From positions 160,001 to 224,000 of the IMG/VR virus record IMGVR_UViG_3300014208_000023: a stretch of DNA of 64,000 bases. One strand, 5' to 3'. Numbering within the stretch: position 1 is the stretch's first letter; each line of letters starts with the position of its first letter. The notes below the pieces were generated by a model. That model ran no database searches. It saw only the letters and a list, made by a program, of their open reading frames with translations, and was not told where the DNA came from. The translations under genes were made by a program, and so were the position numbers. This document shows positions 29,861-48,475 of this stretch, one piece after another. The stretch comes from a virus (Duplodnaviria; Caudoviricetes).

Positions 29861-30748
29861 TTATTGTTCTTCGTAAGTGCTCAAAATTTTAGTTATTTTA
29901 ATAGTCAAATCAACATAAAATGTATCTATTGATTTTGAATCGATCATTTTTAAGAAATTTTCAATAGCTATCGTTAGTGGCTGCTTTGAATAATCAAAAT
30001 CAATTTTAGTATCCCCAATAAATAATTTGCATGACGATAGATCATCATAAACTATATTACTTATTTTACCATTATCTTCATACCATACCGAAAAATATCT
30101 AGATTTATTAACGGCTCCATTACCAACAAATGAGCTAGTTTTTATCTGGCCAAAATCAAGATCAATACAATATGTTTGTCCAGATTTAGTCTCAATATGA
30201 TTTGTAATACAGATACTATCCGGATCTTTATCTATTAAAGATAAAATCATACTTAAATCATGTGGCCCATAATCCCATAGTGATGAAAATTCTTCTTTAG
30301 TTTTACTTGGGCCATATCCAGAACTAACAATACGAAGTATTTTTTTATTATCAACAATTTCTTTAAGCTTTTGAAAAGCTGGAGAAAACAAGTGGATATA
30401 ATCAACAAGTAATTTTTTATTTTTAGATCGTGAAGTAAGACTCTCTATTTGATCATTATCAATAAGAAGCGGTTTCTCTGCTAGAACTGGAATATCATAA
30501 TAAAGATAATCGATTGCAATAGTTCCAGTAAATATTGAGGCAACTATAATTCCATCCAAATTCTCTTTCTCTCTATGAAAATCCTGCCAATCAGTATATA
30601 GTTTACAAGTATCAGGAATAAAGCCTGGTCTTTCATTTTTTCTTCTGGCCATCGCCACTAGTTCGATATTAGGCATTGCAGCTATTGTTTTACAATAATT
30701 CTCGGCCCAACGACCGGCGCCCACTATTCCTAAATGATAAATTTTCAT
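29861..30748 (-). CDS. Gfo/Idh/MocA-family oxidoreductase (putative NDP-sugar ketoreductase)
   Basis: GIVGAGRWA Rossmann motif, VLAEKP, WDYGPHDLS. Confidence 0.8.
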   Translation of the reverse strand: MKIYHLGIVGAGRWAENYCKTIAAMPNIELVAMARRKNERPGFIPDTCKLYTDWQDFHREKENLDGIIVASIFTGTIAIDYLYYDIPVLAEKPLLIDNDQIESLTSRSKNKKLLVDYIHLFSPAFQKLKEIVDNKKILRIVSSGYGPSKTKEEFSSLWDYGPHDLSMILSLIDKDPDSICITNHIETKSGQTYCIDLDFGQIKTSSFVGNGAVNKSRYFSVWYEDNGKISNIVYDDLSSCKLFIGDTKIDFDYSKQPLTIAIENFLKMIDSKSIDTFYVDLTIKITKILSTYEEQ

Positions 30749-31365
30749 TTTTTTCCTTTTCGAACTTTACGCATTTTCTTTGCTTCGTTATAATCACTCT
30801 CCCATATAGAAATAACCTTATAGCCAGCTTTTACTATAAGAGCCTCTCTCTTTAGTGTATCTTGATATAACTTACCAAAAGTCTTCTTAGCAATCGGATT
30901 ACGATCGCTAGGATTATAGATTTTAGGGTTACCGTGCCAGAAGTCGCCCAGATACTCATACACGATCTTGTTTTTACGATCAATACCATCAGGCCGAATA
31001 GACTTATTGCCAATGACGAGGATATTATTGCGCTCTTTCACGCCCAGCTCATCCAGCCACTCTGTTTCACCCTTCGATATGCTGCCAGAACATTTCGGAC
31101 AACCCATTTTATGTAGAATATGGACAGCTGGGCTTATTTCAAATATACCATGTTTCCTGCACCCGATTGCGCCGGGGGTTAGGAAATCAACGAATACGAA
31201 TCTATCATAATTGTATTTGTTACGATGAAGCTTTTTTGCCTTTAGGATAAAATTCGCACGGACCGCATCCGTCTCTTGTTTGTTCTTGTACCCAATGCAC
31301 CATGGACACTCATTACTTAAGTAGTTTGAGGCATATCTCCCGTGTTTAGAGCATATAAATGCCAT
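30745..31365 (-). mobile_element. Free-standing homing endonuclease-like gene (Zn-finger repeats + Vsr/EDxHD-like nuclease)
   Basis: CSKHG..CPWC, CRKHG..F...H..GCPKC, SKGETEW, RPDG...YEYLGDFWHG...VISIWESD. Confidence 0.7.
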
Positions 31366-31376
31366 ACTATATGCGA

Positions 31377-32327
31377 TTATACGTAAAAGTTAGGGTTAGC
31401 CGCGTACCAGCTAATTGTCTTTCTAATTCCGTCATTGAAAGATACTTTTGGTATCCATCCGAGCTTTTTGATCTTTGAACAATCAACCGAATATCTAAAG
31501 TCATGGCCTTTACGATCTTCGACATGCTTAATCATGGCAATAGTTTCCATTAATCGACTAATCTCATCGACCATCTCAATGTTTGTTTTTTCTATGCCAG
31601 AACCTATATTGTAGGTCTCTCCGAGAACTCCTTTTTCAAGAACAGTCATGACGGCCGCATTATGATCTTCCACGAAGATCCATTCACGGAGATTTGCTCC
31701 AGAGCCATGAATAGGTATTTCGCGATTATTCATTAGTGAATCAATAACTACCGGTATTAGATTTCTTACCGGTTGGCGGCCGCCGTAATTATTACAGCAG
31801 CGCGTAATCATCGCTGGCAACTTATGAGTTTCAATCGCGGCCTTCACGAGTAGTTCAGCGGAAGCCTTCGTGGCAGAGTATGGGTTTCTTGGAGCCATAC
31901 AGTCTTCTTCGGTCCAGGGAATCTCATCTATTGATTTAAGTTGTCCATATACTTCGTCTGTAGAAATTTGGATAAATTTCTCTACGCCATATTTGACTGA
32001 TAGGTCCACCATAACTTGTGTTCCAAGTATATTAGAATGAACAAATGGAATGGCTGATGCTATTGAATGATCAACAAATGATTCAGCGGCTCCATTAATA
32101 ACATATTCAGGGCGTTCTATTCTAAAAACATTCTCCATAAATTGCTTATCAGCAATATCTCCCATATAAAAATTGGGATGTAAATCTCTATTAAGATTTT
32201 TTAAATTATATGGTTGAACAATTTTATCTACTCCAACAATATGATATGGCCACTTCTCTATATATGCTTTACGAACAAAATTAGAGAAAATAAATCCCGC
32301 CGTACCAGTCACTAGAATAGTCTTCAT
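31377..32327 (-). CDS. rmlB: dTDP-glucose 4,6-dehydratase
   Basis: AAESFVDHSI, ISTDEVYG, PRNPYSATKAS, RCCNNYG, REWIFVEDH, DRKGHDFRYSVD. Confidence 0.88.
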   Translation of the reverse strand: MKTILVTGTAGFIFSNFVRKAYIEKWPYHIVGVDKIVQPYNLKNLNRDLHPNFYMGDIADKQFMENVFRIERPEYVINGAAESFVDHSIASAIPFVHSNILGTQVMVDLSVKYGVEKFIQISTDEVYGQLKSIDEIPWTEEDCMAPRNPYSATKASAELLVKAAIETHKLPAMITRCCNNYGGRQPVRNLIPVVIDSLMNNREIPIHGSGANLREWIFVEDHNAAVMTVLEKGVLGETYNIGSGIEKTNIEMVDEISRLMETIAMIKHVEDRKGHDFRYSVDCSKIKKLGWIPKVSFNDGIRKTISWYAANPNFYV

Positions 32328-33514
32328 TCAATAATCCTTAATTCTGGAAGTGGAATAATGAACTTACCTTTATATCCAGATTTTCTACATTTATCCATAA
32401 TTGAATCCGCAAAATTCCAGGCAAGTACTAATAAAACATCTGGATTCTTTTCTTGAATGGCAGATGATGGCATTACCGGTATGTGCTTGCCAGGAGTAAA
32501 TGTTCCTTGTTTTAAAGGAGCGTCATCTACAGCAAAATCAATTATAGACTCATCTACATCTAAAGCATACATTAAAGTAGTCGCCTTTGCTGGAGTTCCA
32601 TAAATAGCAATTGACTTACCGGCGGCTTTATATTCTTTAAGAATTTTATTTAGATCCTTGCCTAATTTTTTGATATTTATTTTTAATTGTTCAATAAGCT
32701 CTTTGGGATTAATTTCATCTGAAACAAATACATTTGTTATGTTTGTTTTATTTTTTACATATACCCTAATTGATCCTCCGTGATTATCAATGTGTTTAAC
32801 ATTAACTATTTTTAGATCTAATTTTTCAAAAAATGATATGAGAGGATTAATAGTATGATATGATGAGTGTTCGTGATATACAGTATCAATTAAAGTGTTA
32901 TTGCAAACATCTATAAAATATGAGACTTCAAATATAAATACTCCATTATATGCTAGTATTTTTTTAATACCTTTAACGAATCCAATCATATCTGGAACAT
33001 GAGCCCAAACATTATTAGCCGTTATTAATTCAAATTGTCCATATTGTTTTAATATAGTATCGGCATATTCTTCAGTAAAAAATTCCGCTATAGTTTCAAT
33101 GCCTTCTTTATTGGCCTGATCTGCAATATTACGAGCAGGATCTATTCCAAGAACCTTCATGCCTAATTTTTGAAATTCTTTAAGCAGTGTTCCGTCATTA
33201 GATGCAATATCTAATACTTGCATTCCAGGATCAAGCTTGCACTGATCAATTAAATCAATTGCATATTGTCTAAAATGCTCAACATTAACTTTAGACGTAC
33301 CAGATACAAATAAATAATGACGGAATAATCTTTCAGGATCAACCGTTTCATTTAATTGATAATGCCCACACTGCTCACAACAACATACTTGAAGTGGAAA
33401 TTTATCCTGTTCTTCTTTAGTTTTTAAGAATTCATTAGCTAATGGGGTATCTGGAAATTTTAATACGGGCTCACCTAATGGGTATAAACATAGGCGACAA
33501 TTTTCTTGTTTCAT
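32324..33514 (-). CDS. NDP-sugar C-methyltransferase (TylCIII/EryBIII/TcaB9-like)
   Basis: N-terminal Zn site CRLC...C..C, LDIASNDGTLL, YHEHSSY, YGTPAKATT, VDDAPLKQG..TPG, LAWNFAD. Confidence 0.85.
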   Translation of the reverse strand: MKQENCRLCLYPLGEPVLKFPDTPLANEFLKTKEEQDKFPLQVCCCEQCGHYQLNETVDPERLFRHYLFVSGTSKVNVEHFRQYAIDLIDQCKLDPGMQVLDIASNDGTLLKEFQKLGMKVLGIDPARNIADQANKEGIETIAEFFTEEYADTILKQYGQFELITANNVWAHVPDMIGFVKGIKKILAYNGVFIFEVSYFIDVCNNTLIDTVYHEHSSYHTINPLISFFEKLDLKIVNVKHIDNHGGSIRVYVKNKTNITNVFVSDEINPKELIEQLKINIKKLGKDLNKILKEYKAAGKSIAIYGTPAKATTLMYALDVDESIIDFAVDDAPLKQGTFTPGKHIPVMPSSAIQEKNPDVLLVLAWNFADSIMDKCRKSGYKGKFIIPLPELRIIE

Positions 33515-33939
33515 TAGTAATCCTCACGAATAACATCTGCCTCATGACTTGCATGATCTCTATTTCGTTTAGAAAATGATAATAATACTGTATCTTCAAG
33601 AAAAACAGTTTTGTGAATTACATTAGGCGGAGTAAATACCATTTGTCCAGCTTTAACTATGAGCGGCTTTGCATTAGGATTGGTAGACAGTCCAACATTT
33701 CTTTCATAGTATTCCATGCTACCAGACATCACATAAAGATAATGAAAATCAGTTTTATGCCAATGATTAGATCTTACGCTACCGGCTTTACTTGTAATTA
33801 TTGATGCACATTGCACTGGCGTATTTAATAGATTTTGAATTCCGCCCCTATCATCTAGAAAAGGAGGGTCGAGTGGAACTATGGGATCTTCTGGATATTC
33901 TTCTTCATTAACAGCATCTGTATAATCTTTATTCTTCAT
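33514..33939 (-). CDS. Cupin-fold protein (sugar ketoisomerase/epimerase-like)
   Basis: DDRGGI, RSNHWHKTDFHYLYVMSG, TPPNVIHKT. Confidence 0.7.
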   Translation of the reverse strand: MKNKDYTDAVNEEEYPEDPIVPLDPPFLDDRGGIQNLLNTPVQCASIITSKAGSVRSNHWHKTDFHYLYVMSGSMEYYERNVGLSTNPNAKPLIVKAGQMVFTPPNVIHKTVFLEDTVLLSFSKRNRDHASHEADVIREDY

Positions 33940-35060
33940 TTTTTCTTATCCTTTATTATATCCTCTATTTTAATTGCAATTTTGGACCAGGTGTAATTAG
34001 AAGCAAATGCGGTACACTTTTCTATAATACTGTCCGCAAAAGCTTTATTTGTTAGTCCTTTAATGACAGCATTAGTAAAAGCTGGCAAATTATCTCTAAT
34101 AGGGCTCTTAATTATTACTGCTCCCGAATCATTATAAATAGAGCCTAAACAATCTATATCTGTCATAACCGGCACAGTATATCCTGCGTGATTTTCCATA
34201 GTAGATACTGAAAACCCCTCAGTAAAAGCAACGGTATCTGCCGAAAAGGCAAATACGGAAGCTTCGCTTATTTCTTTTGCCATCGTTTCTCTGCTAACAG
34301 ATCCTATTTGTTCTACGTCTAAATGTTTTAACTTTTTAACACTTTCTTTTATATACCTAAGTCTTTGTCCCATTTCCACTACATGCGGATGATGGCTTGA
34401 ATCATTTGGTTCTATGTTAAGAATATCTCCATAATCAAAATGATAAAATATTTTCAAGCTAGCTTCTGGAACTGCTTCTTTAATTTTAGACCATTGACTT
34501 AGTAACCAATGTAATCCTCTATCACAACTACTTGTCCAAATTACTCTTCCAGGCACTCTTTTATCTTGATACCAAGACGGATCGCATCCAAGCGGAACAA
34601 CTGACCATTTCTCTGGAGTTTTTACTGATTTTTTTATATATTCCATATGCATGTCACATGGACTTAAAAAGACATCAACAAAATCATCATAATCAGCTTG
34701 GCAATATGAAAAATCATTTAAAAATTGCCAACAAATACGTGTTCCAGTAGTATTAACCCCTCGAAATGCATCTGGTTCGTTTATAGATATGACTGCATCA
34801 AAACTATCATCAATAACGGTATGGCGATCTATAAAATTGTATAATTTTACACTCTCCCAAGTATCTGGTTTATTATTTGGTTCGGCATGAACTGTAAATA
34901 AAGAAACATCATGCCCAAGCTTAGCCAGCTCTTTACTAATCATTACTGTTGATAAATCGGTTCCTGTTAAGCCTCTTAAACAGGTCCAAATATTATCATA
35001 CCAAAAATCTAATGGACGCTTTCCAATAGAAAAAGAGCCTAAAAATACTGCAATTTTCAT
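33936..35060 (-). CDS. Glycosyltransferase (GT-B, GT4-like)
   Basis: GTDLSTVMISKELAKLGHDV, WTSSCDRGL, EGFSVSTMENHA. Confidence 0.8.
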   Translation of the reverse strand: MKIAVFLGSFSIGKRPLDFWYDNIWTCLRGLTGTDLSTVMISKELAKLGHDVSLFTVHAEPNNKPDTWESVKLYNFIDRHTVIDDSFDAVISINEPDAFRGVNTTGTRICWQFLNDFSYCQADYDDFVDVFLSPCDMHMEYIKKSVKTPEKWSVVPLGCDPSWYQDKRVPGRVIWTSSCDRGLHWLLSQWSKIKEAVPEASLKIFYHFDYGDILNIEPNDSSHHPHVVEMGQRLRYIKESVKKLKHLDVEQIGSVSRETMAKEISEASVFAFSADTVAFTEGFSVSTMENHAGYTVPVMTDIDCLGSIYNDSGAVIIKSPIRDNLPAFTNAVIKGLTNKAFADSIIEKCTAFASNYTWSKIAIKIEDIIKDKKK

Positions 35061-36304
35061 TGTGTTTTCACTATAAAATTAACCAATTGTGTAAAATACT
35101 CCATACTTTTAGATATATCAATTGTTTCTTTTGCCTTAATATTAAGTAGTGGCATTGAATGAACAACAATGTCGCATTCAAGATCTGAGAATTTATCGCG
35201 ATGACATAAATTAACTCCGTGCTCAATCCTTTCTAATTCGCAAGAGTCTAATGAATAAATAGTAACTGAATGACCTTTATTTGCTAAAATCATAGCTTCA
35301 TCATGAGCTTCATCAAAAACAATATTTAAGGGTTTATTTATTTTTTTACCATGTGTTGCTTTAATGAAAATATTTCCTTGATTTTCAACGTCTCTTGTTC
35401 CAAGACATAAAGCAACATAACACTCTTCAATATGAAATCCCGCTTCACGAAAATCTGCTGCTACGCTCCATATAGATGGAGCAATTAGATGAAAACGCGG
35501 ATTAGGGTGTAACCATGATGTTCCATTTAATCGTTTATATAGCCATGGATGAGCCCATTCAATATAATTCCCTCGCATCCATGCTCCATATGGTGTGCAA
35601 AGCAAAAATTTTCCATTTTCATTCATTAAATTTTTTGCCGGAATTAGCATATCATTTACTCGATCCATGATATGTTCATATGTATCTGTGCTGGTAATAT
35701 AATCAAATTTTTGATTCAAATTAAGATTGCTTATGTCTTTAAAATATGAAACAAAAAATTTTGCTCCAGTATTAAATTCTTTTGCTTTTCTATTTGCCAA
35801 TGCAACAGAAGTTGTGGATAAATCTATTCCAACAGCTTGATATCCCATTAAAGCATATCTATTTGTAAAACCTCCATCCATCGACCCAAGATCAAGAATT
35901 GATGAGGGAGTTTTTGAGAGATTTTCAACGATTAGATTGAAGCGATTTGCTTCTTGTGATCCCTCTGATAAATTTCGTGGAAGTGGAGTTCCAGCCTCAC
36001 TCTCAGTATTCTCCGGACTGTTGTTTAGAATAGCCGTTTCATTATCATAAATCCATGCAATTGATTGTTTTGTCAAAAACAAAGCCTTTTTTGTTGCGGC
36101 AGAATCTCTAACTCTATATGGTGCATTTTCTAAAAAAATGATCGCGGATTGAACTTCATCATGAAGCATATATTGTTTCCAAATAGCAATAACTACAGAT
36201 TGTAATTGTTCTGTAGTAATATCTAGTGGAAAATCACTAAAATCATATTCGCTTGGAATTGACCAATCATTGGCTCTGTTCGATAATTTTACTTTTGGAA
36301 ACAT
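35057..36304 (-). CDS. Class I SAM-dependent methyltransferase with GT-derived flanking segments
   Basis: ILDLGSMDG, VGIDLS, FDYITSTDTYEHI, LLCTP. Confidence 0.8.
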   Translation of the reverse strand: MFPKVKLSNRANDWSIPSEYDFSDFPLDITTEQLQSVVIAIWKQYMLHDEVQSAIIFLENAPYRVRDSAATKKALFLTKQSIAWIYDNETAILNNSPENTESEAGTPLPRNLSEGSQEANRFNLIVENLSKTPSSILDLGSMDGGFTNRYALMGYQAVGIDLSTTSVALANRKAKEFNTGAKFFVSYFKDISNLNLNQKFDYITSTDTYEHIMDRVNDMLIPAKNLMNENGKFLLCTPYGAWMRGNYIEWAHPWLYKRLNGTSWLHPNPRFHLIAPSIWSVAADFREAGFHIEECYVALCLGTRDVENQGNIFIKATHGKKINKPLNIVFDEAHDEAMILANKGHSVTIYSLDSCELERIEHGVNLCHRDKFSDLECDIVVHSMPLLNIKAKETIDISKSMEYFTQLVNFIVKTQ

Positions 36305-36327
36305 AAATGCGCCTTTCTCTAATTCTA

Positions 36328-37143
36328 TTATTTAATAGCTTCAACAACAAAGCTATGCGTCAATCCGAAGTCTACTACTTGTTTTGACATTATATCATCT
36401 TTGCTTTTACCAGTTTCATAATAAAACTCTACATCTTTAAACCCTGCGGCAGATAATACCGCAGTCATTGATTTTTTAGTGAAAAGAAACATATGTCCAT
36501 CATAATTAGTCCAAGTGCATCCTTTGCCACAAGCGCCATACATTATCATAGCTAATTGTGAGCCTGGATCTGCATTCCTATAAAATTCAGGCTGCTCGAT
36601 AGCAAATTTATCCATATCATCATTCAAATAAGCTTTAATGAGTAAATCAAGATCAGGAGTAGTCATCCTAATAACTCCTCCAGGTTTTAACATTCTATGG
36701 CAGTCTTTTAATAATTTTGGAACTTCATGAATTGGATTAAGATGCTCAATAACTTGTCCTATATAAATTGATTCTATGCTATTATCTGCATGATGAGAAA
36801 ATCCATTTCTAATATCATGCACTCTAAAATCTACCATTCCTTTGCTGCGAATGAAAGTAGATAATACTTGTTGGTGCTCAGGCATCTCATGTAAAACATA
36901 AAATAATGTTTTAGCTTCATCCTGCCAGTCTAGATATTTAAGGTAATTCGATATATCTTCACGATCATAATTAATCCAACCTTCAAATGGAAATACATTT
37001 GGTCCAGAACCTATATTAAGTCTTGGTAAATATGTTTTTTTATCTTCTACCGGGATATAACATTCTGATTCTACTGAAGCAATAAAACTTGGTGATGCTA
37101 TTGCCGTACTATTTAGTAATTTTTTAAAATCGTCGTCATTCAT
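36328..37143 (-). CDS. Class I SAM-dependent methyltransferase (type 11-like)
   Basis: LNIGSG, DIRNG, QVIEHL, CHRMLKPGGVIRMTTPDL. Confidence 0.85.
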   Translation of the reverse strand: MNDDDFKKLLNSTAIASPSFIASVESECYIPVEDKKTYLPRLNIGSGPNVFPFEGWINYDREDISNYLKYLDWQDEAKTLFYVLHEMPEHQQVLSTFIRSKGMVDFRVHDIRNGFSHHADNSIESIYIGQVIEHLNPIHEVPKLLKDCHRMLKPGGVIRMTTPDLDLLIKAYLNDDMDKFAIEQPEFYRNADPGSQLAMIMYGACGKGCTWTNYDGHMFLFTKKSMTAVLSAAGFKDVEFYYETGKSKDDIMSKQVVDFGLTHSFVVEAIK

Positions 37144-39875
37144 TGGGTCTTTCTTCTTTCAGGATTTGATTCCAATAATCTTGTATCTCCATTATAATAT
37201 CCATTACCATTTTCTTTATATGGAACAGTTGGTTGATAAGGAGTCATTGGGTGAACATTAACCTCATCAATTAATTGATTAAACATATTGCTCCAGTCTT
37301 GGGCAAGATCATCTAAACCAAATGTTTGTTTAGCATATTGCTGCAAATTAATTCTGTCTGATTCGCTATAATTATTAATCGATTTAATAACCGATTTAAC
37401 AAATTTATCTTTATATTCTATTGATGTCCAATCTCCATTAATTAAAATGCCTCGATTAGATACCGTTTCATTTAATGCAGCAATACTTGAAGTAACTACT
37501 CCTAATCCCGCAGCCTGCGCTTCCATCGCAGTGATGCAAGATGTTTCGGTAAACCATGTTGGATGAATCCAGCAACCGGCTGATAAAAATTCTTCGGCCA
37601 ACACTTCTTTACTCACCCTATCATGATATACCACGCCCAATGGCTCTAGCTCTTTAATTTGATTTTTGAGTCTTCCAATTAAATCAGATTGTAATTTATC
37701 ATGTTGCGCAGAAAATTCCCAGTTTTTAAATCCATAATAAAGATGTAGCTCTGCCTTCGGAACTTGTTTTTTAATTTGTGGCCATACTTCTAATAAAATT
37801 GGCCAGCTTCTATCTGGGCTAGAACTATTAACGCATTTGAATTGATTTCTTTTTATATTTTTCGTGAAAAGATTCAAATCAATTCCATTTCTGGTTACAA
37901 TGACATGATCCGGATGAATATTATGAATATTAACTAATACCTGTTTGTGCCACTCAGTTAGTGCAAGTACCCTATCAGCTTTTAACAATAATTCATTAGT
38001 TGCGGCAATAGCATAAACATCATGAACCCATAATAATTTAAGCTTGGCTTTAATGTTATATTTATCGTCTAACATATCTGCACGACGAGATACAACTAAT
38101 ACGTCACACTCTAAATCTTTAAATTTATTAGTTTGATAATAATGTACTCCATCATAAACTTTACTACCAAAAATTCCACAACTATTATAAACGCTAACGT
38201 TATGCCCTAAAGCCGCCAATCTTTTTGCTTGCTCTAATAGCATAGTTTCACTACCGCCAATACCCATTCTTTTAACGGTTTCAGGGGTCCAAGTTTCAAC
38301 GCCATCTCCCGCAAAAAATATTACATTTAAAGGTTTATCAGTTCTTACTAATGCAGAGGAGGTTGTTGTTATGCTATTTAATTTTTGTTTTTCTAAGTCT
38401 TTAGATATATTAGAAATTCTAATAATATCATCAGAATTTTGCATAGTAATTGGTAAGCTGGCAACTAATGCAGCGGCGGATGCAAATTCATCACGAAGTA
38501 TTAATTGTTTCCATAATAATACTATGGTTGAATTAACTTGATCATCTGATAAGTGTGCAGGAAGCTCTTCGAAATTACATTTGGCAGGAATTTCCCAATT
38601 TAATAAAAATTTATTTTCATTAATGGTCTGTTTATTTAAAACCGCTCCAATAAAATCAGACATTTTAGGAGTTAATTCTTCTAGTGCTCTTAATTGATAA
38701 ATAGCCGCTAATGCTTCTTGTTTATGAATCCAAATTTCATATATTTTTTTATTTATAATAAGTGCTTGATCATTTGGCTGACTCTTAAGACCTATATTAA
38801 CGCTTTCTAATGCTCCTTTAATATCTCCCAATTTACTTAATGCCATATTTAGATATCGATGAATATCATATTCTCTATCTAATGGATTAACAAATAATAA
38901 AGTTTTAGTAACGGGAAGGTTCAATCCAACACGAGAAAAATATACGCATCTTTCCCAATGACGCATTTCATTGGGTCCTCCTCGTTCTGCCAAGAAATAA
39001 AACATTTTAGCTAAAGCAAAATAACCTTCACCCCAAGTTTCTTTAATAGAAATTGTTTTGAATGCCCACTTAAGACCATCTTCATATTTGCCCTGGGCTT
39101 GAAAAATATCAACTAATTTAAGACATGCCATGGCTCGCTCATCATCCCAGCCAGAAATATCTACATACTTACTAAGATGTTGAATAGCTTCATCTACTAA
39201 TCCATTATTATAACATTCTAATCCAAGATAATACATCTGCCTTGCATCAGAATCTCCAACCTTAGCAAAATAATTTCTTAAAATACGTAAATTACGACCA
39301 GACTCCGGAGCCTTATTACTATATTGTCTTCTATGTTTATATACAACAGAATCATCAGTAACGAATGCACAATTAACTCCATCATTAGGAATTACAACTT
39401 CATGTACTGGATTAACCCAATGAAATTTGTTCTTATTAGAGAATAATCTCTCTCTATAATGCAAACAAGTACATTGCCCTAATTCATTATAGGAATATTC
39501 ATAAGGAAACATAAAAGCAATCGCATCAACATCTGGATTTATTGCATCTGTTAATTTTAATAAATTTTCTGCTCCAACAATAACATCATCAGCATCCATC
39601 CACATTACCCATGGTTGGGTTGCAAGTTCAAAAGATCTTTGTCTGGCTTGAGAAAAATCTTCAATCAAACCAGTTTCAGGATTATTACAAGCGGTATAAT
39701 TTTCAAAAACATCTGCTAAACGACGAGCCACATCGGCAGTGCCATCAGTACTGCCAGTATCAACTATAACAATTTCTTTTACATAATCTCGAATGGACTT
39801 AATACAATCTTCTAATAGGGGCTCATTTTTTACAATTATACATACGCTTACGTTTGCTTGGGACTTCATATTCAA
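37140..39875 (-). CDS. Multidomain glycosyltransferase: GT2 - TPR - GT4
   Basis: VSVCIIVKNE...DTGSTDGT...DFSQAR...WMDADD...VHE (GT2); RQMYYLG...W..ER (TPR); GGSE..., SSPDRS, FTETSCITAMEAQAAG (GT4). Confidence 0.88.
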   Translation of the reverse strand: MNMKSQANVSVCIIVKNEPLLEDCIKSIRDYVKEIVIVDTGSTDGTADVARRLADVFENYTACNNPETGLIEDFSQARQRSFELATQPWVMWMDADDVIVGAENLLKLTDAINPDVDAIAFMFPYEYSYNELGQCTCLHYRERLFSNKNKFHWVNPVHEVVIPNDGVNCAFVTDDSVVYKHRRQYSNKAPESGRNLRILRNYFAKVGDSDARQMYYLGLECYNNGLVDEAIQHLSKYVDISGWDDERAMACLKLVDIFQAQGKYEDGLKWAFKTISIKETWGEGYFALAKMFYFLAERGGPNEMRHWERCVYFSRVGLNLPVTKTLLFVNPLDREYDIHRYLNMALSKLGDIKGALESVNIGLKSQPNDQALIINKKIYEIWIHKQEALAAIYQLRALEELTPKMSDFIGAVLNKQTINENKFLLNWEIPAKCNFEELPAHLSDDQVNSTIVLLWKQLILRDEFASAAALVASLPITMQNSDDIIRISNISKDLEKQKLNSITTTSSALVRTDKPLNVIFFAGDGVETWTPETVKRMGIGGSETMLLEQAKRLAALGHNVSVYNSCGIFGSKVYDGVHYYQTNKFKDLECDVLVVSRRADMLDDKYNIKAKLKLLWVHDVYAIAATNELLLKADRVLALTEWHKQVLVNIHNIHPDHVIVTRNGIDLNLFTKNIKRNQFKCVNSSSPDRSWPILLEVWPQIKKQVPKAELHLYYGFKNWEFSAQHDKLQSDLIGRLKNQIKELEPLGVVYHDRVSKEVLAEEFLSAGCWIHPTWFTETSCITAMEAQAAGLGVVTSSIAALNETVSNRGILINGDWTSIEYKDKFVKSVIKSINNYSESDRINLQQYAKQTFGLDDLAQDWSNMFNQLIDEVNVHPMTPYQPTVPYKENGNGYYNGDTRLLESNPERRKTQ

Positions 39876-39899
39876 TATATATAACCGAGATTATTCGAA

Positions 39900-40619
39900 T
39901 TATGTATTAAATAATACGGCACTTAATGCTGTTACGTCAGCAGTAGTAAATGCCGAAGTACTTCTTCCCCAAAATGGTGATATCATGCCACCATTGAATG
40001 GGAAGTCAGTTCCACCGCTTCTAACTCCTAGGAATTGAGCCGTAGATATTTTCCAATCAGATCCAAGTGTGCCAGTGCCTGTTGAAGATTGCGCAACTGT
40101 ATTAATATATTGAGTAACAACTCCACTTGATCCATTTTTAACTACAATAAGACTAAACCATCCAGCACCAATTACAGTTGCATCAGATAATGCGCCAGCA
40201 AAATTAACTATTCCGCCAGCATCTATATAACAGTTATAGTCATCAACACCATAAAGCCACTCTGCATCGGCAGTTCCATCGCAACGAATTAAAGCTCCCC
40301 AAATAAAATGATCGGTTCCAACGTATGCCGGTAAAGTGGTTATTATATTTGATTGAATACAATCTTGATTTGGCAAAGTTTGCCCATCAAAATCAGGATA
40401 AGATTGTCCCAGTGCCGTTGTTGCGACGGCAGGAATATTCGCAGCCGTACCGCCTGGATTAAGCGCAACTCCATTTCCGGAACCAACTTGACATGTATAA
40501 GTTCCGGTAGAATCATAATTCAAATACCATCTATATAATCTTGAGCCTAAAACATCCAGAATTGTTGTTCTGGTACTTGATCCAGAAAATGATATTAATG
40601 AGGTAGATATTCCAATCAT
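39900..40619 (-). CDS. LamG/concanavalin A-like domain protein
   Basis: Start moved to ATG 40619 (ATGA overlap with the collagen stop); [20 protein letters not shown]...FNGGM pattern. Confidence 0.5.
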
Positions 40620-43600
40620 GAATTTCCGCCTTCCATTCTTTGAAAAATTCCATACCAATTAATAGTTGTATTGCTTCCTCTAACGAAACAAATTCCAGTT
40701 GCACCTGTATATGTCATAGTTGCGTTCCAAAATGAATTATCTTGTTTAGAACCGTTGTCTACACATGTCGATCCTGATGGAATTGCCCACGCCGTAGCTC
40801 CATCATGACGAAGCGTAAAAGAACGTTTAAATACTGCTGCCTGAGCCGCACCAGAACTAACACCATTTATTACTCCATCGAGATTGGTAACTGCTGTTGT
40901 ATCTATTGTGTAAGCATACATTGGCTGCCAACCAGTAGCTGTGGTTGTAAATTCAACTTCATCCGTATAAGTTCTTCCTTTAATAGTAGATCTATTTGTC
41001 GTTCTTGATCCAAGAACATCAATATTTCCACTGCCACTTACTCCAAGCATAGAATAACCAGATAACTGTTTAACCGTAGCTCCAGTAGGTCCGGTAGCAA
41101 GATCGCCTCCAAGTTGAAGTGTTCCCGGCGGTCCGGCAGGTCCGGTAGGACCAATTGGTCCGCCAGCAGGACCAGTAGGTCCCGCAGGACCAATAGATCC
41201 GGTTGGACCTATACTTCCAGTAGGTCCCGGCGATCCTTGGGCTCCAGCTGGACCAATAACACCCTCCATCGAAACTGCTCTAAATGACGCTTTATCCAAT
41301 GAAACTATTCTAGAGTTAGCTATTTTTCTCCACTCAATAAATCCGGTGTGAGAGCCTGCTGCCAAGCTGACGCCAGCAATTGAATTTACTTGCACTGGTC
41401 CAGTATGGACCATAACTTGATTTTCACGTTTCGCAACTCCGTCGATAACCCATCTGGTTTCAACTTGAGCCGGTCCAAGAGTACCAGATGCAAGAAGCTG
41501 CATCGAGTAATCCCACATTGTATTAGCAGCCACGCCCAACGTAATATTAATGTAAGTGCTTGGAATAGCCGTGAATGTAGATCCGGTTGGTTGTCGGTGT
41601 CCCGTGGCAATTAAGAAAGATAATGGCATGACGTCCACACCGCCGATTGGACCAGTAGCTCCTTGTGGACCAATGGATCCCGTAGGTCCAACGGGACCTG
41701 TTGGTCCTGTAACACCACCGCCACCACCACCCGGAATAGCTACTTGAATAACTGTTCCGGTAGTTGTTGATGTTGCTACTGCTGATACGCCAGCTCCTAC
41801 AAAATTAAAAGCGGTGACATTGCCTTTAAGAACATCATCATCTAATACATTTATTCCGGAGAATCCTCCACCTGGACCTTGAGGACCAATACTTCCCGTT
41901 GGACCTGCCGGACCAGTAACTCCAGGCGAACCTTGAGTGCCAATAGATCCTGTAGGTCCAGGTGATCCTTGAATTCCTTGCGGACCGATACTGCCTGTAG
42001 GTCCTTGTATACCTTGTTGACCTTGCGGTCCAGTAGGTCCAGTTGATCCTATCGTTCCAGTTGGACCTTGAGGTCCAATGCTACCCGTTGCACCAGCAGA
42101 TCCTTGTAGTCCTTGAGGTCCAATGCTACCAGTAGCTCCAGCAGATCCTTGCGGACCTTGCAGTCCAGTAGATCCAATAGTTCCAGTTGGTCCCTGTATG
42201 CCTTGTGGACCAATACTGCCCGTAGGACCAATACTGCCTGTAGGTCCTTGAATACCCTGTTGACCTTGGGGTCCAGTTGGACCTGTAGATCCTATAGTTC
42301 CTGTTGGACCTTGAGGTCCAATACTGCCCGTTGCGCCAGCAGACCCTTGTTGACCTTGAGGACCTATAGGTCCAGTAGCACCAACGGTTCCAATTGATCC
42401 GGTTGGACCTTGAGGTCCAATGCTTCCAGTAGCTCCGGCAGATCCTTGTTGACCTTGCGGTCCAGTCGATCCAATAGTGCCTGTTGGACCTTGTGGTCCA
42501 ATAGAGCCAGTAGGACCTTGAATGCCTTGTGGACCAATGCTGCCTGTAGGTCCTGTAGAGCCAATCGTTCCTGTTGGACCTTGAGGTCCAATACTGCCTG
42601 TTGCGCCAGCAGATCCCTGTTGACCTTGTGGTCCAGTTGATCCAATTGTTCCAGTTGAACCACGAGGTCCAGTAGGTCCAGTAGACCCAATCGTTCCTGT
42701 TGGACCTTGAGGTCCAATACTGCCTGTAGGTCCAATAGATCCTTGTTGCCCCTGTGGTCCTGTAGGTCCAGTTGATCCTATAGTTCCGGTTGGACCTTGA
42801 GGTCCAATGCTACCTGTAGCGCCAGCAGATCCTTGTATACCTTGTTGACCCTGAGGACCTGTAGGTCCTGTAGAACCGATAGTGCCAGTTGGACCTTCTA
42901 CGCCTTGTGGTCCAACACTACCTGTAGATCCTGGAGATCCTTGAGGACCAGCTGGACCAGTTGCGCCAGTAGCATTTCCACCAATTGTAAATAAGCTAAA
43001 GTTTGCATCAACAACTGTTAAAACAGTTCCGCCAGATATAGATATTCCTCTAACTCTAATGTCTACAACGTCATTCGCACTTAGAAAATTCAAATCTGTA
43101 ATTGATATTGATGTATTTTGCCCGGTGCCTTGCGAGGCTGCTCGCGCTCGGGCATTTATGTGCTCAACACCATTAATAAAAATTGTCCACTCATAATCTT
43201 TATTCGCGCCGTCTGTATGAAATGTAATAGATGCCGCTAATTTATACCAACCAGCAATATTAATTGTAATATCACTAGTACTAGCGCTTGGAGTTGTTCC
43301 AAATGCATTTGCAACAGTATCAAGTGCTGTTATTTTATAAAAAGTATCAGTAGTTGTAAGGGTTTGTCCAGTAACATTATCGGTTACACTTAGCGTACCA
43401 TAATTTGCAGGATTACCAGCTGGTCCGGTAGCACCTACGCTACCAGTTGGTCCAATTTGTCCAGCTGGACCTATCTGCCCTGTTGGTCCAATAGTGCCGG
43501 TTGGACCAATAGGTCCAATGCTACCAGTAGCTCCAGCAGATCCTTGGGGACCTTGAGGACCAGTAGCTCCACCACCGGCACCGCCGATGCCAGTAGCATT

Positions 43601-43633
43601 TATTTGGTAATTTTTAACTCTTGTATTGGCCAT
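40616..43633 (-). CDS. Collagen-like fibre protein with BclA/C1q-like globular domains
   Basis: Extensive Gly-X-Y runs ([15 protein letters not shown]) and beta-sandwich segments ([11 protein letters not shown]...IFINGV...[11 protein letters not shown]). Confidence 0.9.
41872..42972 (-). repeat. Main collagen Gly-X-Y array (about 120 triplets), imperfect tandem DNA repeats
   Basis: Recurring units such as [31 protein letters not shown]. Confidence 0.9.
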
Positions 43634-43637
43634 TGGG

Positions 43638-44222
43638 TTAAATTATTTCAAAGTAATCTATTGTTAAGACATCATCGGGATATGGCGGCGCAACAAATAC
43701 AATTGTATCATAACCAGTTCCAAGCCCTCCGCTTTCAGCAACAAAATAGTCTTCAGGAATATGTTGTCTTAACCCATTAACAAATAATACTTCTTTAAAT
43801 TGAGATGTATGTTTGAATTTTGTTAAAGTTGTAAATGTAATATTAACATTGTTTTGTGTTCCAATTAAAGAAGAATCTTGCACATCAAATCCTCCAGTTC
43901 CAATAGTTCCAGTTACTTCTAGCCCATTAATAATGCCTGCTGATTGCAAAAAAGATTTATGAGCGTCATTAAACTGTAGCAAGTCTATATCGCTTGATAA
44001 TACAGATATTTCGCCAACTCTAATTTTATGTTGAAGCTCTCCTTTTAGAAGCGATGATCTTATATCAGACTCAGACACTCCTGGAATTGCTAAAAGATCT
44101 CTAGATTGTCCAAATGGTATTGGATAATTGAAAATAAATATAGTTTTTTTAGGATTAGAGTTATTATTTACAACAAAACCGCCATTTATTTTTTGGAAAG
44201 GCGCAAATTCATTTAATGGCAT
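43638..44222 (-). CDS. Virion-type protein upstream of the collagen fibre
   Basis: C-terminal [12 protein letters not shown]...LFVNGLRQ...DY...TIVF..PP...VLTIDY structural domain; N-terminus related to 21736..22122. Confidence 0.5.
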
Positions 44223-44990
44223 TTACTCTTCCTTCTTCGATTCGTTCCCGATTTCCTTTACTTCTTCAGACTCAATACTGTCAGCAATAGTTATGTTTAT
44301 AGATCGTTTAACATTCTTATTTTCTTTATTGGCCTTTACATTGCCAAATAATTTTTCCATCAATGAATCCTCCTGGACAAATGATGGTTGTTTTATGATT
44401 GGCATTGGTTGGTCACTGGTCTTACTAATTTGATCTTTTAGACGATAATTTGCATACAAAGATTTATGCATTAATTTCTCATCTCTACTAAGGAGAACGT
44501 TTCTAATCTCTTCTTCCGGTAATCTTTCTATATCAGCTGAGGCTAATCTATATCGTAAATAAAGTAACTCATCAAGATAATCAAATTGTGGCTTGAAAAA
44601 ATCATAATCTTTCTGCTCAACGCGCAAAGTATTATCTACGGCATTACATAGAATTCTAGAATTACTATCTAGCCAATCTGGATCGCCTATAAATTGGTCT
44701 TTAATTAAATCTACGGCAGTTTTGACTTTGAATAGATTTTTAATCTTATTAGATATTTCTGGAGAAATGAATGGCTCGCTTCTTTGATAATTTTGAAGAT
44801 TGCGCCGCGGATTAACTGTCGTCTCGGAATTGATGCGTCTAGTGTCAAAGGCTATTTTAGTCATACCACTGGGCAATGCTTCAAAAGCCTCTCTGATTTT
44901 AGAAAGATTAGTGGATTTTTCAGATCTTTCTTCGAAAGAAGCGTGTAATTTCAACAAATCTTTATTTAAGCCAAGGAAAAATAAGCTCAT
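44223..44990 (-). CDS. Hypothetical protein with K-x-A motifs
   Basis: LLKLHASF, MTKIAF, KVKTAV. Confidence 0.55.
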   Translation of the reverse strand: MSLFFLGLNKDLLKLHASFEERSEKSTNLSKIREAFEALPSGMTKIAFDTRRINSETTVNPRRNLQNYQRSEPFISPEISNKIKNLFKVKTAVDLIKDQFIGDPDWLDSNSRILCNAVDNTLRVEQKDYDFFKPQFDYLDELLYLRYRLASADIERLPEEEIRNVLLSRDEKLMHKSLYANYRLKDQISKTSDQPMPIIKQPSFVQEDSLMEKLFGNVKANKENKNVKRSINITIADSIESEEVKEIGNESKKEE

Positions 44991-45020
44991 TCTAGGAATA
45001 TGTCAAAGTATCGATAGTCT

Positions 45021-46304
45021 TCAGCTAGAGAATACTTTTAGATACATATCGGCAACTTTTTCCCACGAATTCTCTATTAGATGTTTGTTTTGAATATCGA
45101 CCTGATGTTTTTGTGCTTCTTTAGAAGAAAATAATACATCAAGCTCTTTGGCTATTTCTTCTGGAGTATTGGCCTTAATGCTGGGTAAATCCTGGAAATG
45201 CGGTATGCCGGATGTTATAATAGGCACTCCCTTGGCCATAGCAACTCTACAAGCCCCGCTAGCGCCAAATACAAGGTGTTTTGGGTCGGTTCCATAAGGA
45301 AATACGGCAACCTTATTTGTTCTCAAAAAAGAATCTATAACAATTTCAGATTGAAATCCCCTTATCAAACTAATGTTAGATTCAACATTAAGCGTTTTTG
45401 ATAGCTGAACCAGCTCTTCATAATAAATTTGATGTTCAATTCCGTTAAATGGTGATTCAGCAAGTAGGCCAGTAAAAAATACATCAGGATACTTGTCCTT
45501 AAGGATTGCCGTGGCCTTAATACAATCCTCAAATCTTTTATATCTAAAAGAAAATCCTTGCGTAACAAATGTATGGTCTGATTTATAGAAGTTCCATAAC
45601 TTTGGTAAGTTTTGATTTATAAAGCATCCATGTGGAATAACATATACTTTACCGGCAACTTCTTTATTGATCTTAAGAACTTCTTTGGCTCCTTCGCCAT
45701 GAACAACAATTTCTGGTATGCAAGCTTCAACGATAGTTTTATCTTCGTGATAAAATATGGAATGCATGGTGACTATGATTCTATATTTTGATAGCCTACT
45801 TATAAATGATAGCCAATATCTAGCGTTGGGAAATAAACCAAATTCGTGTTGAATTAAAATAACATCAGGCTCATATTTTTCTATCGCCTCTATTAACTCA
45901 TCTAATTGTTCTCCTCGACGCCAGCATTCTATAACTTGATCTTCTTCTGCAATTGTGTTGTCGATTATATTTATGTTCTGCGTAGGAGAGTTGTTATATT
46001 CTATGAATAATTTAAAATCAGCAACTTTCTTTGATATCTCCGGAATAAGTGCCTCAGCATATGTACTTATTCCACACTTCATTTTCCAATTATTAATGAA
46101 TGCAACTTTTAGTTGATCTGACGGCTTTATTGCTTTTCTTAATTCAACCTTATCATTTTTCAAATGATAGTTAAGCATTAATTCTTGAGAAGATATGCCA
46201 ATAAGCTCTTGTGGAAGCTCAATAACTGTCAAATCATCATTAACAAAAAAAGCATTCGAGATAATGCGAATGCTTCCATTTTTAACCCCAACAAAACGAG
46301 GCAT
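45021..46304 (-). CDS. Glycosyltransferase (GT4-like)
   Basis: KCGISTYAEAL, IQHEFGLF, VTMHS, IPHG, SGACRVAMAKGVPIITS. Confidence 0.85.
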   Translation of the reverse strand: MPRFVGVKNGSIRIISNAFFVNDDLTVIELPQELIGISSQELMLNYHLKNDKVELRKAIKPSDQLKVAFINNWKMKCGISTYAEALIPEISKKVADFKLFIEYNNSPTQNINIIDNTIAEEDQVIECWRRGEQLDELIEAIEKYEPDVILIQHEFGLFPNARYWLSFISRLSKYRIIVTMHSIFYHEDKTIVEACIPEIVVHGEGAKEVLKINKEVAGKVYVIPHGCFINQNLPKLWNFYKSDHTFVTQGFSFRYKRFEDCIKATAILKDKYPDVFFTGLLAESPFNGIEHQIYYEELVQLSKTLNVESNISLIRGFQSEIVIDSFLRTNKVAVFPYGTDPKHLVFGASGACRVAMAKGVPIITSGIPHFQDLPSIKANTPEEIAKELDVLFSSKEAQKHQVDIQNKHLIENSWEKVADMYLKVFSS

Positions 46305-47288
46305 CTATTCCTTAGATATAATAGTTCTAACCTTATCTTTTAGGCTACTGAAAGCATCCAAATTTATTGCCATATCAGTAGTTTTGTCATGTAGGCTTTT
46401 AACAAATAATACATCATCAATTGCAGTTAATATTGCAGATTTAGATGTTCTATAAAAATCTACATTTTTAGTAAGTGTAGCATTAAAATACTTTAATTTG
46501 TCGTGATGATGCAGATTAATGCACGGAGTTTGTGTTATATCCGCCATAACCAATCCGTGATATCGTTGAGATATAATTAATTCGTAAGAAGAACATAGTT
46601 TTGATAAAGATACAAAATCATATTCCTCAAATGGCAATATATTTAATTTGCCATGTGTCATCTTGTTTGCTATCTCGGCTGCCGCAAAATCATCTTTGTG
46701 ATTAGAGTTTCTACACATTGGCAAAACGTCAATAGAGTGCTTATGATCAATAAGAAATTCGAAAGTTTGGGCACACTCTGATTTAAAATATTCCCACGCA
46801 GAGTGCTTCCACGCAGCATCATTCCATTTTGAAACAGTATGAGAGTTTGGCAAAAACAGTATGGATTTTGGTTTTGCTTTCTGCTTGTCGACTTCATCAC
46901 TTAACGCATATACTAAATCTGGACAGTAAATAGCATTAGCATTCAGTGCTTTGATTTTATCTATAGCGTGTATGGATCTTATGCAGACAAAACTGGCTTT
47001 TTGAATTAGAAACTTGTGCCACGGATGTATAGATGTCTCCGCACCTACTCCAAGATAAACAATGGGTTTAGATGGAAGCTTTTCCAATAACTCCTTTGGA
47101 ACATTTGGTTGGCCATCTAAAAACGATCCTCCACCGAGGAATAGGGCGTCGTGACTTTCTAATAACTCTGCCGTTATTTTTTCAGAGAACGTGAATTCAT
47201 ATTCTGGAAATAATTTTTTATATGCTTCAATAAATAAATTGTCTCCGATGTTCGATTTGTTAAAGAACCCATAGACAAGTATTTTCAT
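46305..47288 (-). CDS. Polysaccharide pyruvyltransferase-family protein
   Basis: GFFNKSNIGDNL, LGGGSF, LGVG, CIRS, PDLVYAL, ISQRYHGLVMA. Confidence 0.8.
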   Translation of the reverse strand: MKILVYGFFNKSNIGDNLFIEAYKKLFPEYEFTFSEKITAELLESHDALFLGGGSFLDGQPNVPKELLEKLPSKPIVYLGVGAETSIHPWHKFLIQKASFVCIRSIHAIDKIKALNANAIYCPDLVYALSDEVDKQKAKPKSILFLPNSHTVSKWNDAAWKHSAWEYFKSECAQTFEFLIDHKHSIDVLPMCRNSNHKDDFAAAEIANKMTHGKLNILPFEEYDFVSLSKLCSSYELIISQRYHGLVMADITQTPCINLHHHDKLKYFNATLTKNVDFYRTSKSAILTAIDDVLFVKSLHDKTTDMAINLDAFSSLKDKVRTIISKE

Positions 47289-47291
47289 ACT

Positions 47292-47630
47292 TTAGTATAT
47301 AACGCTATATGAAATTTCTCGAACGTTTCCTACGTCGTAAGATATTATTAACTGATAGGCTCCACACTCTTCAATTAATTCCCAGTGTAATGTATCATGA
47401 TGTGGATTACACGGATGACAGGGATGCGAGTTAAATTGATCAGTAAAATGCACAGAAATAAATTTTGGCATATGTGACTGGCATAGATCGATACCAACTT
47501 TGCCGCATCCATTTACAAAAAAGTCTCCATCCATTGTGTGATTGCGAGCTTTATGTTTTTTAAGCATGTAGTATCCTATATAAGTGGCAGATAAAATCGA
47601 GCTTACGACGAGAAGCATGTACAATATCAT
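47292..47630 (-). CDS. Small membrane-anchored protein
   Basis: N-terminal TM followed by a His/Cys-rich beta domain. Confidence 0.5.
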   Translation of the reverse strand: MILYMLLVVSSILSATYIGYYMLKKHKARNHTMDGDFFVNGCGKVGIDLCQSHMPKFISVHFTDQFNSHPCHPCNPHHDTLHWELIEECGAYQLIISYDVGNVREISYSVIY

Positions 47631-48371: not shown

Positions 48372-48403
48372 ACGAAGATGCTTTAAAATGTATAGAAATA
48401 AAT

Positions 48404-48442
48404 AAAAAAAAAAAAAACGGAGAGCATTTTCATGCTCTCCGC
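48404..48442 (-). terminator. Intrinsic terminator after the decoration-like gene
   Basis: GCGGAGAGCAT-GAAA-ATGCTCTCCGT followed by a long U-tract. Confidence 0.88.
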
Positions 48443-48475
48443 TTTTCAAGCTAGGAGATAAGGCCTAGCTAGCTA

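Follow-up and report, generated by a model that had tools for sequence, protein, structure and literature searches.

The collagen-like protein BclA of the Bacillus anthracis/cereus exosporium carries O-linked 6-deoxyhexose oligosaccharides that include methylated sugars, and it is encoded beside genes for dTDP- (deoxythymidine diphosphate) sugars. Among tailed phages, to our knowledge, glycosylated virions have been shown only in mycobacteriophages, whose virion glycosylation was reportedly the subject of work by Freeman et al. in Cell Host Microbe in 2023. The glycan of BclA is a rhamnose-anthrose tetrasaccharide (PMC6947953), and a published summary (PMC12619734) has mycobacteriophage glycosyltransferases (GTs) modifying virion proteins in the cytoplasm of the host, as a demonstrated or a presumed activity. 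In mimivirus a single gene cluster combines nucleotide-sugar enzymes, several GTs and methyl- and pyruvyltransferases, and the virus clothes its surface fibrils with methylated and pyruvylated glycans without recourse to host machinery; mimivirus also encodes L230, an enzyme that hydroxylates lysine, adds glucose to the hydroxylysine in the manner known from animal collagen and acts on the collagen-like protein L71 (PMC9614988). Here we describe a block of genes in which a collagen-like fibre gene stands among GT and sugar-modifying genes, found in a 64,000-nucleotide (nt) stretch of a virus of the Caudoviricetes (hereafter "the window"), which corresponds to bases 160001-224000 of the 428,320-bp IMG/VR record IMGVR_UViG_3300014208_000023. 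Judging from gene content and gene order, we lean moderately towards the view that this block specifies a phage-encoded cytoplasmic glycosylation system whose main acceptor is the collagen-like fibre, and we consider it likely that virion proteins in general serve as its acceptors. The two genes that carry this argument are the following:

40616..43633, minus strand: collagen-like fibre protein of 1005 amino acids (aa); Pfam Collagen, E 2.4e-61
37140..39875, minus strand: three-part glycosyltransferase GT2-TPR-GT4 of 911 aa (the "big GT"); Pfam GT2, E 5e-17, and GT4/GT1, 4.5e-9 to 7.7e-8

The fibre gene is the sole collagen-type gene in the 428-kb genome and lies inside the enzyme block. Its product contains 164 Gly-X-Y triplets in five runs (residues 22-75, 223-588, 640-663, 791-823 and 825-839) and is laid out as four stalks alternating with globular knobs. 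Threonine occupies the Y position in 56 triplets, with Gln in 42 and Ile in 37, and the X position is Pro in 72, Ser in 44 and Thr in 13, so that the stalks offer about 113 Thr/Ser positions and almost no Lys. An N-terminal and a C-terminal stalk-plus-knob unit (residues 14-196 and 791-995) both match phrog_5073, "tail fiber protein". The knobs have no Pfam family even at E<=5 and only Atlas leads of about 0.83, and neither a BclA_C nor a C1q domain was detected in the protein by Pfam. The stalk is also matched (E 9.5e-26) by a 780-residue PDB chain (8zxl/9ius) named "spindlefibril" and "axialfibril". The fibre may belong to the tail, as the PHROG names say, or to the head, which its position right after the capsid gene in relatives would also fit.

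The 911-aa enzyme was modelled with AlphaFold at a pLDDT of 83, and the model consists of a GT-A domain (residues 1-190), helical repeats (194-413, 11 TPR-like helices at pLDDT of about 90), a small helical domain (444-499) and a GT-B domain (517-874). Pfam recognizes TPRs in some of its homologues, and many homologues have a methyltransferase (MT) domain between the repeats and the GT4 domain. Residues D39, D94, D96 and D97 of the GT2 domain (D-x-D-D) are invariant in nine homologues, in which E777 and E785 of the GT4 domain (E-x7-E) are likewise kept. A phmmer search against all solved structures returned only GmaR (E 8.5e-16), SunS (7.5e-11) and ThuS, and the best Foldseek matches were SPY, OGT, SunS and ThuS, all of which are protein or peptide glycosyltransferases. 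SunS superposes on the model over the GT2 and repeat parts at a root-mean-square deviation (rmsd) of 3.7-3.9 Å over some 295 columns, and the GT-B part is nearer to the GT4 enzymes MshA/PimA (TMt 0.56-0.65) than to GT41. SunS and ThuS are titled glycocin S-glycosyltransferases in their PDB entries, and the N-terminal domain of GmaR transfers N-acetylglucosamine (GlcNAc) to flagellin, the TPR domain behind it having been proposed to hold the protein substrate (PMC9638930). Because of these matches in sequence and in fold, both halves of the phage enzyme are laid out like protein-glycosylating enzymes. The GT2-TPR-GT4 family has at least 443 members and may represent a previously undescribed GT2-TPR-(MT)-GT4 architecture. 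GmaR/SunS-type enzymes transfer sugar to Ser, Thr or Cys, and for the phage enzyme Thr and Ser are the predicted sites.

Synteny ties the two genes together. Scanning viral contigs with the big GT yielded 15 loci and look-ups of five further homologues gave five more, which after merging of near-duplicates left 17 distinct loci. In 15 of these the GT has one or more collagen genes on its upstream side, with products as long as 2575 aa, and so the linkage of fibre and GT in relatives, which the original prediction had named as a test of itself, held. Identity to the window enzyme is 38-68% over all loci and 46-68% over those with collagen. The collagen gene either adjoins the GT gene or is parted from it by a short second collagen gene or a homing endonuclease, with five small genes (about 4.3 kb) intervening in one locus, L036. 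The common order is a 255-aa protein, a 194-aa protein, the collagen protein or proteins, the big GT, variable slots, a GT4 paralogue, a cupin, a 3-C-methyltransferase, RmlB and a GFO reductase, often ending with a patatin; in the variable slots one finds methyltransferases, additional GT4s, FkbM methyltransferases, REC-phosphatase genes or homing endonucleases. Such varying tailoring slots are what one would expect for a surface glycan under diversifying pressure. In the complete 427-kb genome G003 the capsid protein is 34% identical to that of the window and is encoded 27 kb away, yet collagen and GT are still together, and thus the linkage of fibre and enzyme survives rearrangement.

Three further genes flank the fibre gene:

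44223..44990, minus strand: charged conserved protein of 255 aa
43638..44222, minus strand: conserved protein of 194 aa with an N-terminal module of about 100 residues
39900..40619, minus strand: LamG/concanavalin-A-like lectin-fold protein, 239 aa from an internal Met; Atlas feature score 0.97-0.98

The 194-aa protein is about 50% identical across relatives and is encoded in a single copy in this genome. The 255-aa protein, with homologues of 37-43% identity in the same position, comes before it in the relatives compared over that region. Neither belongs to a Pfam, NCBIfam or PHROG family, and Atlas leads for the 194-aa protein are below 0.9 apart from its own cluster. A profile made from the 194-aa protein covers 573 cluster representatives. 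Among the best 150 of these, 45 are proteins of 300-1323 aa that begin with its N-terminal domain of about 100 residues; the C-terminal parts of those inspected resemble, to the eye, beta-helix spikes, LamG domains or fibre repeats rich in His, and in four cases the module runs directly into Gly-Pro-Thr collagen repeats. Since it heads such varied fibre- and spike-like proteins, the pattern looks like that of a modular virion-attachment domain, and the 194-aa protein is a candidate for the virion anchor of the collagen fibre, with its module as a candidate new anchor domain family. AlphaFold is confident for residues 9-100 only (pLDDT of about 85), and that N-terminal domain matched no known fold (VIA Z <= 3.7; BFVD E >= 0.01; no PDB profile match). 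The LamG protein resembles Laminin_G_3 clusters (TM-score 0.71-0.78), and the start of its gene overlaps the collagen stop by 4 nt. Because the anchor-type module heads fibre-like proteins and is sometimes fused to collagen, we read the 194-aa, collagen and LamG proteins as one fibre apparatus.

Downstream, the module ends in a set of nucleoside diphosphate (NDP) sugar genes:

33514..33939, minus strand: cupin of 141 aa, probable NDP-4-keto-sugar isomerase/epimerase; Pfam Cupin_2, conserved position
32324..33514, minus strand: NDP-hexose 3-C-methyltransferase; Pfam Methyltransf_13/14, full-length MtmC match
31377..32327, minus strand: dTDP-glucose 4,6-dehydratase, RmlB-like; TIGR01181, 343 bits vs cut-off 365
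30745..31365, minus strand: homing-type endonuclease, not part of the pathway; PHROG 559/681, E 4.5e-12
29861..30748, minus strand: GFO/IDH/MocA-family oxidoreductase, probable NDP-ketosugar reductase
28973..29836, minus strand: patatin-like phospholipase, the conserved last module gene in many relatives

The 3-C-methyltransferase matches MtmC (E 3.8e-70, 240 bits) and also TcaB9 and the PDB entry 5t64, "Sugar 3-C-methyl transferase". From the known chemistry of RmlB and of MtmC/TcaB9-type methyltransferases, the product of the pathway should be a dTDP-3-C-methyl-6-deoxyhexose. We are less sure of the roles of the cupin, which weakly matches the Cap5F cupin domain, and of the reductase. The only nucleoside triphosphate (NTP) transferase of the genome is RmlA-like (156 bits) and is found at genome position 287.9 kb, about 80 kb from the edge of the block, beside an RmlD-like gene (genome 286.7-288.6 kb). 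Further GT2/GT1 genes occur at genome 126.9-133.7 kb and 295-309 kb; with GT and RmlA/RmlD-like genes also lying outside the block, the phage has at least three sugar loci, and the dTDP-glucose used by the block comes from another of these or from the host. The endonuclease has one weak match in the relatives (30% over 107 aa). Beyond the patatin by one gene, locus L032 encodes a large GDSL-lipase protein. In three relatives a protein with a REC domain fused to dual-specificity phosphatase domains is encoded between the 3-C-methyltransferase and RmlB genes (L018:11012-11938, L021:16129-17043, L035:20774-22171), a signalling-type gene in the sugar operon that is absent from the window.

The remaining enzymes of the block are predicted to lengthen or decorate a glycan:

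33936..35060, minus strand: GT-B glycosyltransferase of 374 aa, paralogue of the GT4 domain of the big GT
35057..36304, minus strand: S-adenosylmethionine (SAM) methyltransferase of 415 aa, flanked by a helical domain and a truncated GT-B half
36328..37143, minus strand: SAM methyltransferase of 271 aa, present in about half of the relatives
45021..46304, minus strand: tentative GT-B (GT4-like) protein of 427 aa; Pfam/NCBIfam E of about 0.002, sub-threshold, in colinear order
46305..47288, minus strand: polysaccharide pyruvyltransferase of 327 aa; Pfam PS_pyruv_trans, E 7.6e-19

The 374-aa GT falls below the Pfam cut-off, but its family profile matches the GT-B part of the big GT in hhalign (99.8%, E 1e-28), and among the related loci long enough to cover this position only one lacks a homologue, identities in relatives being 38-70%. 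Two parts of the 415-aa methyltransferase recur in the big GT: residues 303-392 correspond to the N-terminal half of its GT-B domain (E 7e-7), and residues 13-68 to its helical segment at residues 426-481 (E 1e-7). The gene looks like a split-off copy of a fusion, since the big GTs of relatives carry an internal methyltransferase domain. The helical segment, of about 56 residues, has no further copy in the genome beyond these two enzymes, for which it may serve as a common docking piece. The 427-aa protein gave no hhalign match to the big GT, no PDB relative and no BLAST match in 15 related IMG/VR loci, and the pyruvyltransferase, which scores 56 bits against the CsaB model (below cut-off), has no homologue in the five related contigs compared; both therefore seem to lie outside the conserved core.

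The original prediction, made from the letters of this DNA, had described a complete glycosylation system with four GT-containing genes, a pyruvyltransferase and pyruvyl cap, SAM methyltransferases and NDP-sugar enzymes, all built around a 1005-aa Gly-X-Y fibre. All of the genes that it named are present where it placed them, on the minus strand, the Pfam match supports the collagen fibre, and the likeness that it saw between the GT2-TPR part and protein glycosyltransferases has been borne out by both sequence and fold. Three of its GT genes stand (the 911-aa GT2-TPR-GT4 enzyme, the 374-aa GT4 and the stub on a methyltransferase, which is real), with the gene at 45021-46304 only tentative; RmlB, the 3-C-methyltransferase, the cupin and the reductase do lie in the block, and the RmlA-like gene does not. 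The pyruvyltransferase gene is genuine, but a pyruvyl cap as a regular part of the system is not conserved. "Complete" was therefore an overstatement, with the RmlA-like gene far away, one GT4 uncertain and the pyruvyltransferase unmatched in relatives.

The phage origin assumed in that prediction is supported by structural genes on both sides of the block, as well as by the record itself, a megaphage genome with direct terminal repeats that is rated complete at its 428,320 bp:

8023-10824: protein with a sheath-like C-terminal part
23893-24900, plus strand: major capsid protein; PHROG 2522, E 1.6e-78
58434-61799: weak matches to head-maturation protease and major-head families

The glycan block thus lies between the capsid gene and the protease/head genes. 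The full stretch is present in two groundwater metagenome runs, which may be the source of the phage. Judged by the capsid protein, the nearest isolate is Bacillus phage G, whose gp27 shares 52.6% identity with it, but phage G has no such module near its capsid gene and was not among the tblastn matches for the GT2-TPR-GT4 enzyme, and megablast of the block against isolated phages found no shared DNA. Directly after the window capsid gene, and convergent with the glycan block, is a gene for a PhyH-family 2-oxoglutarate/Fe(II) dioxygenase (24996-25805, plus strand; Pfam E 1.1e-20), which could hydroxylate a virion protein; as a collagen hydroxylase it was dropped, having no homologue in five related contigs. 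In a relative whose capsid protein is 76% identical, a small Gly-Pro-Thr collagen protein is encoded right after the capsid gene (L026:2005-3060); it has a Cys-rich N-terminus and scores 24 bits for BclA_C, below the cut-off of 38.

As to its layout, all genes from 48.4 kb to 28.9 kb of the window are on the minus strand, and the conserved block extends beyond the end given in the original prediction (29861) to the patatin gene. Junctions range from -4 to +30 nt, and six of them are 4-nt overlaps; the block is tightly packed, in keeping with the gene overlaps already remarked upon there. One other element marks the upstream edge of the block:

48412..48447, minus strand: strong intrinsic terminator-like hairpin (16-bp stem, then a T run), immediately upstream of the block

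Within the block itself no hairpin of similar strength was found. A TTG-start open reading frame (ORF) at 47664-48449 (minus strand) overlaps this hairpin, and therefore its true start probably lies further downstream. The product of the neighbouring gene at 47292-47630 has a hydrophobic segment at its N-terminus. In none of the enzymes of the block does the mean hydropathy over any 19 residues reach 1.6, the mark of a transmembrane-like segment, and Pfam and NCBIfam detected no initiating phosphoglycosyl transferase, flippase, polymerase or ABC transporter family there. The integral membrane machinery that characterizes Wzx/Wzy- or ABC-dependent polysaccharide clusters is thus missing from the block. 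Homing endonucleases of the HNH and GIY-YIG types occur at differing sites in the sugar operons of relatives (L017:17201-17602; L031:17708-18265; L035:9073-9993), and intein/Hint and LAGLIDADG domains occur in several big-GT homologues; the fibre/glycan module is a hot spot for selfish elements.

Combining these observations, we infer the following scheme, which covers the acceptor, the sugar made, the order of priming, extension and capping, and the site on the virion. The starting dTDP-glucose would come either from the host or from the RmlA-like enzyme, whose gene lies outside the block, and RmlB, the cupin, the 3-C-methyltransferase and the GFO reductase would turn it into dTDP-3-C-methyl-6-deoxyhexose. 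The GT2-TPR-GT4 enzyme would grip the fibre through its helical repeats, while its GmaR/SunS-like GT2 domain would add the first sugar to Thr or Ser of Gly-X-Thr and Gly-Ser-Y triplets. Lengthening of the chain would then fall to the GT4 domain of that enzyme, to the GT4 paralogue and possibly to the tentative GT-B protein, and decoration to the two SAM methyltransferases, joined in this phage alone by the pyruvyltransferase. Attachment of the fibre to the virion would involve the 194-aa anchor-module protein and possibly the 255-aa protein as well, and the LamG protein would be an additional part of the fibre.

Several points weigh against the fibre as main acceptor. The support for its glycosylation consists of synteny and homology throughout, and the 15 loci that join collagen and GT are kin rather than independent events. 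Two distant high-GC loci (L027 and L030) have no collagen gene within 10 kb; the GT of L030 adjoins a DnaB helicase among replication genes, and the genes upstream of that of L027 have no PHROG matches. A 42-kb podovirus encodes a 30%-identical GT after its capsid gene and a small protein, again without collagen. Because such distant homologues lack a neighbouring collagen, the GT family is evidently not restricted to collagen acceptors. Conversely, relatives have further collagen genes away from the GT, and bacterial collagen-like proteins in general often have Thr at Y. Some of these observations could also be taken to mean that other virion proteins, such as a capsid or decoration protein, the LamG protein or the 194-aa protein, are glycosylated instead of the fibre or in addition to it. 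This explanation, which we regard as unlikely but as the best of the alternatives, gains from the podovirus arrangement and also from six related loci whose capsid gene precedes the module by a few kb and shares its strand (G001, G002, G004, L031, L032 and L034), a further point against the fibre, and from the mycobacteriophage glycans, which are located on capsid and tail-tube C-termini as summarized in PMC12619734. Arguing the other way, the capsid gene is 16-27 kb from the module in the window genome (about 16 kb from the collagen gene, on the opposite strand) and in G003, with the collagen gene still adjacent, and the window capsid protein has no Ser/Thr-rich C-terminal extension.

A second explanation would make the fibre a mere neighbour of an island that remodels a glycan of the host envelope (wall polysaccharide, teichoic acid or a lipopolysaccharide (LPS) precursor), either to block superinfection or to change the cell surface. 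In its favour, the pyruvyltransferase is similar to CsaB, an enzyme that adds pyruvyl groups to a secondary cell-wall polymer, and phage glycan clusters are commonly named LPS or cell-wall modification genes (JGI names). Moreover, GT4/GT-B enzymes that act on lipid-linked acceptors, such as PimA and MurG, often have no transmembrane segments, so that the missing membrane parts, too, count for less in favour of the fibre than they might seem to and leave room for a host glycan target. Nevertheless, an initiating transferase, flippase, polymerase, transporter and transmembrane segment are all lacking, the block sits among virion-annotated genes and remains joined to fibre genes through rearrangements, and the solved relatives of the GT2 domain act on proteins or peptides, all of which makes remodelling of the envelope quite improbable in our view. 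Finally, although phage GTs are classically DNA-modifying (PMC9614988, section 3; PMC12619734), we consider it highly improbable that the block serves to hypermodify phage DNA with sugars or to produce a small glycoconjugate, whether free or bound to lipid. No DNA base hydroxymethylase or DNA-GT family was detected in the block by Pfam or NCBIfam, the block lies among virion-annotated genes, and a GT2 with TPRs, tailoring by O-methyl and pyruvyl groups and a branched 6-deoxy sugar typically go with surface glycans.

Glycosylation of the fibre by the enzymes encoded around it thus remains the reading that we prefer. A more far-reaching version of it, which we put forward tentatively as possible but short of probable, is that a clade of megaphages of 420-480 kb dresses its virions with a nap of collagen-like fibres that are O-glycosylated by phage enzymes with a branched, methylated and, in the present phage, pyruvylated glycan. 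If this were true, the coat would be antigenically or adhesively variable between phages through its varying tailoring genes, and it would matter for the way in which such phages adhere to cells and grazers in groundwater or escape their notice. It would also explain the purpose of some of the large "auxiliary" glycan islands in huge phages and provide a tractable new family of protein O-glycosyltransferases, of the size given above, with a defined repetitive acceptor. The prediction that the fibre is glycosylated can be tested without culturing the phage, by co-expression of a fibre fragment and the enzyme.

In the literature searched we found no prior description of a module of collagen-like and glycosyltransferase genes in jumbo or huge phages, but each of its themes has a counterpart in a known system. 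At the level of the enzyme, GmaR, the Listeria flagellin O-GlcNAc transferase, and SunS/ThuS likewise have an N-terminal GT2 domain followed by TPR-like repeats. They differ from the phage enzyme in that identity in fold alignments is 14-19% and in that the latter has extra private helical and GT4 domains, to which the big GTs of relatives add the methyltransferase domain, and no antirepressor domain. With OGT and SPINDLY there is a likeness of layout only, helical repeats followed by GT-B, at TM-scores of 0.2-0.36 and high rmsd, and the GT-B part is, as noted, closer to GT4.

BclA, like the present fibre, has Gly-X-Thr collagen stalks and globular knobs, and in both cases dTDP-6-deoxyhexose genes (here RmlB, the 3-C-methyltransferase and the reductase) and GTs adjoin the collagen gene. 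In contrast, BclA is a bacterial protein of the spore surface with a single stalk, whereas this is a phage fibre with several, and the sugar predicted here is 3-C-methyl-branched rather than rhamnose or anthrose. The mimivirus cluster shares with the block the bringing together of sugar synthesis, several GTs, and methyl- and pyruvyltransferases. It belongs, however, to a eukaryotic giant virus that uses UDP-based (uridine diphosphate) sugars, rhamnose (Rha) and 4-N-acetylviosamine (Vio4NAc), and its fibril protein R135 is a GMC oxidoreductase and not a collagen; Pfam detected no GMC oxidoreductase family in the block, and no homology to the mimivirus cluster was found beyond shared enzyme superfamilies, the mimivirus proteins themselves not having been compared directly. 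The pair L230 and L71 offers another parallel, in that a virus encodes a collagen-like protein together with an enzyme, here a candidate, for its glycosylation, but the block, unlike L230, has no lysyl hydroxylase, and with stalks almost free of Lys the candidate sites are Thr and Ser.

As in the mycobacteriophages, phage GT genes lie within or beside virion structural genes. There, however, the acceptors are capsid and tail-tube C-termini and the GTs are few, while the acceptor predicted here is a collagen-like fibre, and a nucleotide-sugar pathway, methyltransferases, a pyruvyltransferase and a three-part GT2-TPR-GT4 enzyme are encoded in addition. The module unites known themes, namely phage virion glycosylation, glycosylated collagen and viral fibril clusters, with an enzyme architecture and an anchor module of its own. 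Should the proposed coat exist, it would have converged with the surface coats of spores and giant viruses and would be a third, independent invention of a glycosylated fibril coat, beside those of Bacillus spores and mimivirus. The conservation of the module in a wide clade of uncultured megaphages points to a design other than the capsid and tail-tube glycans of mycobacteriophages.

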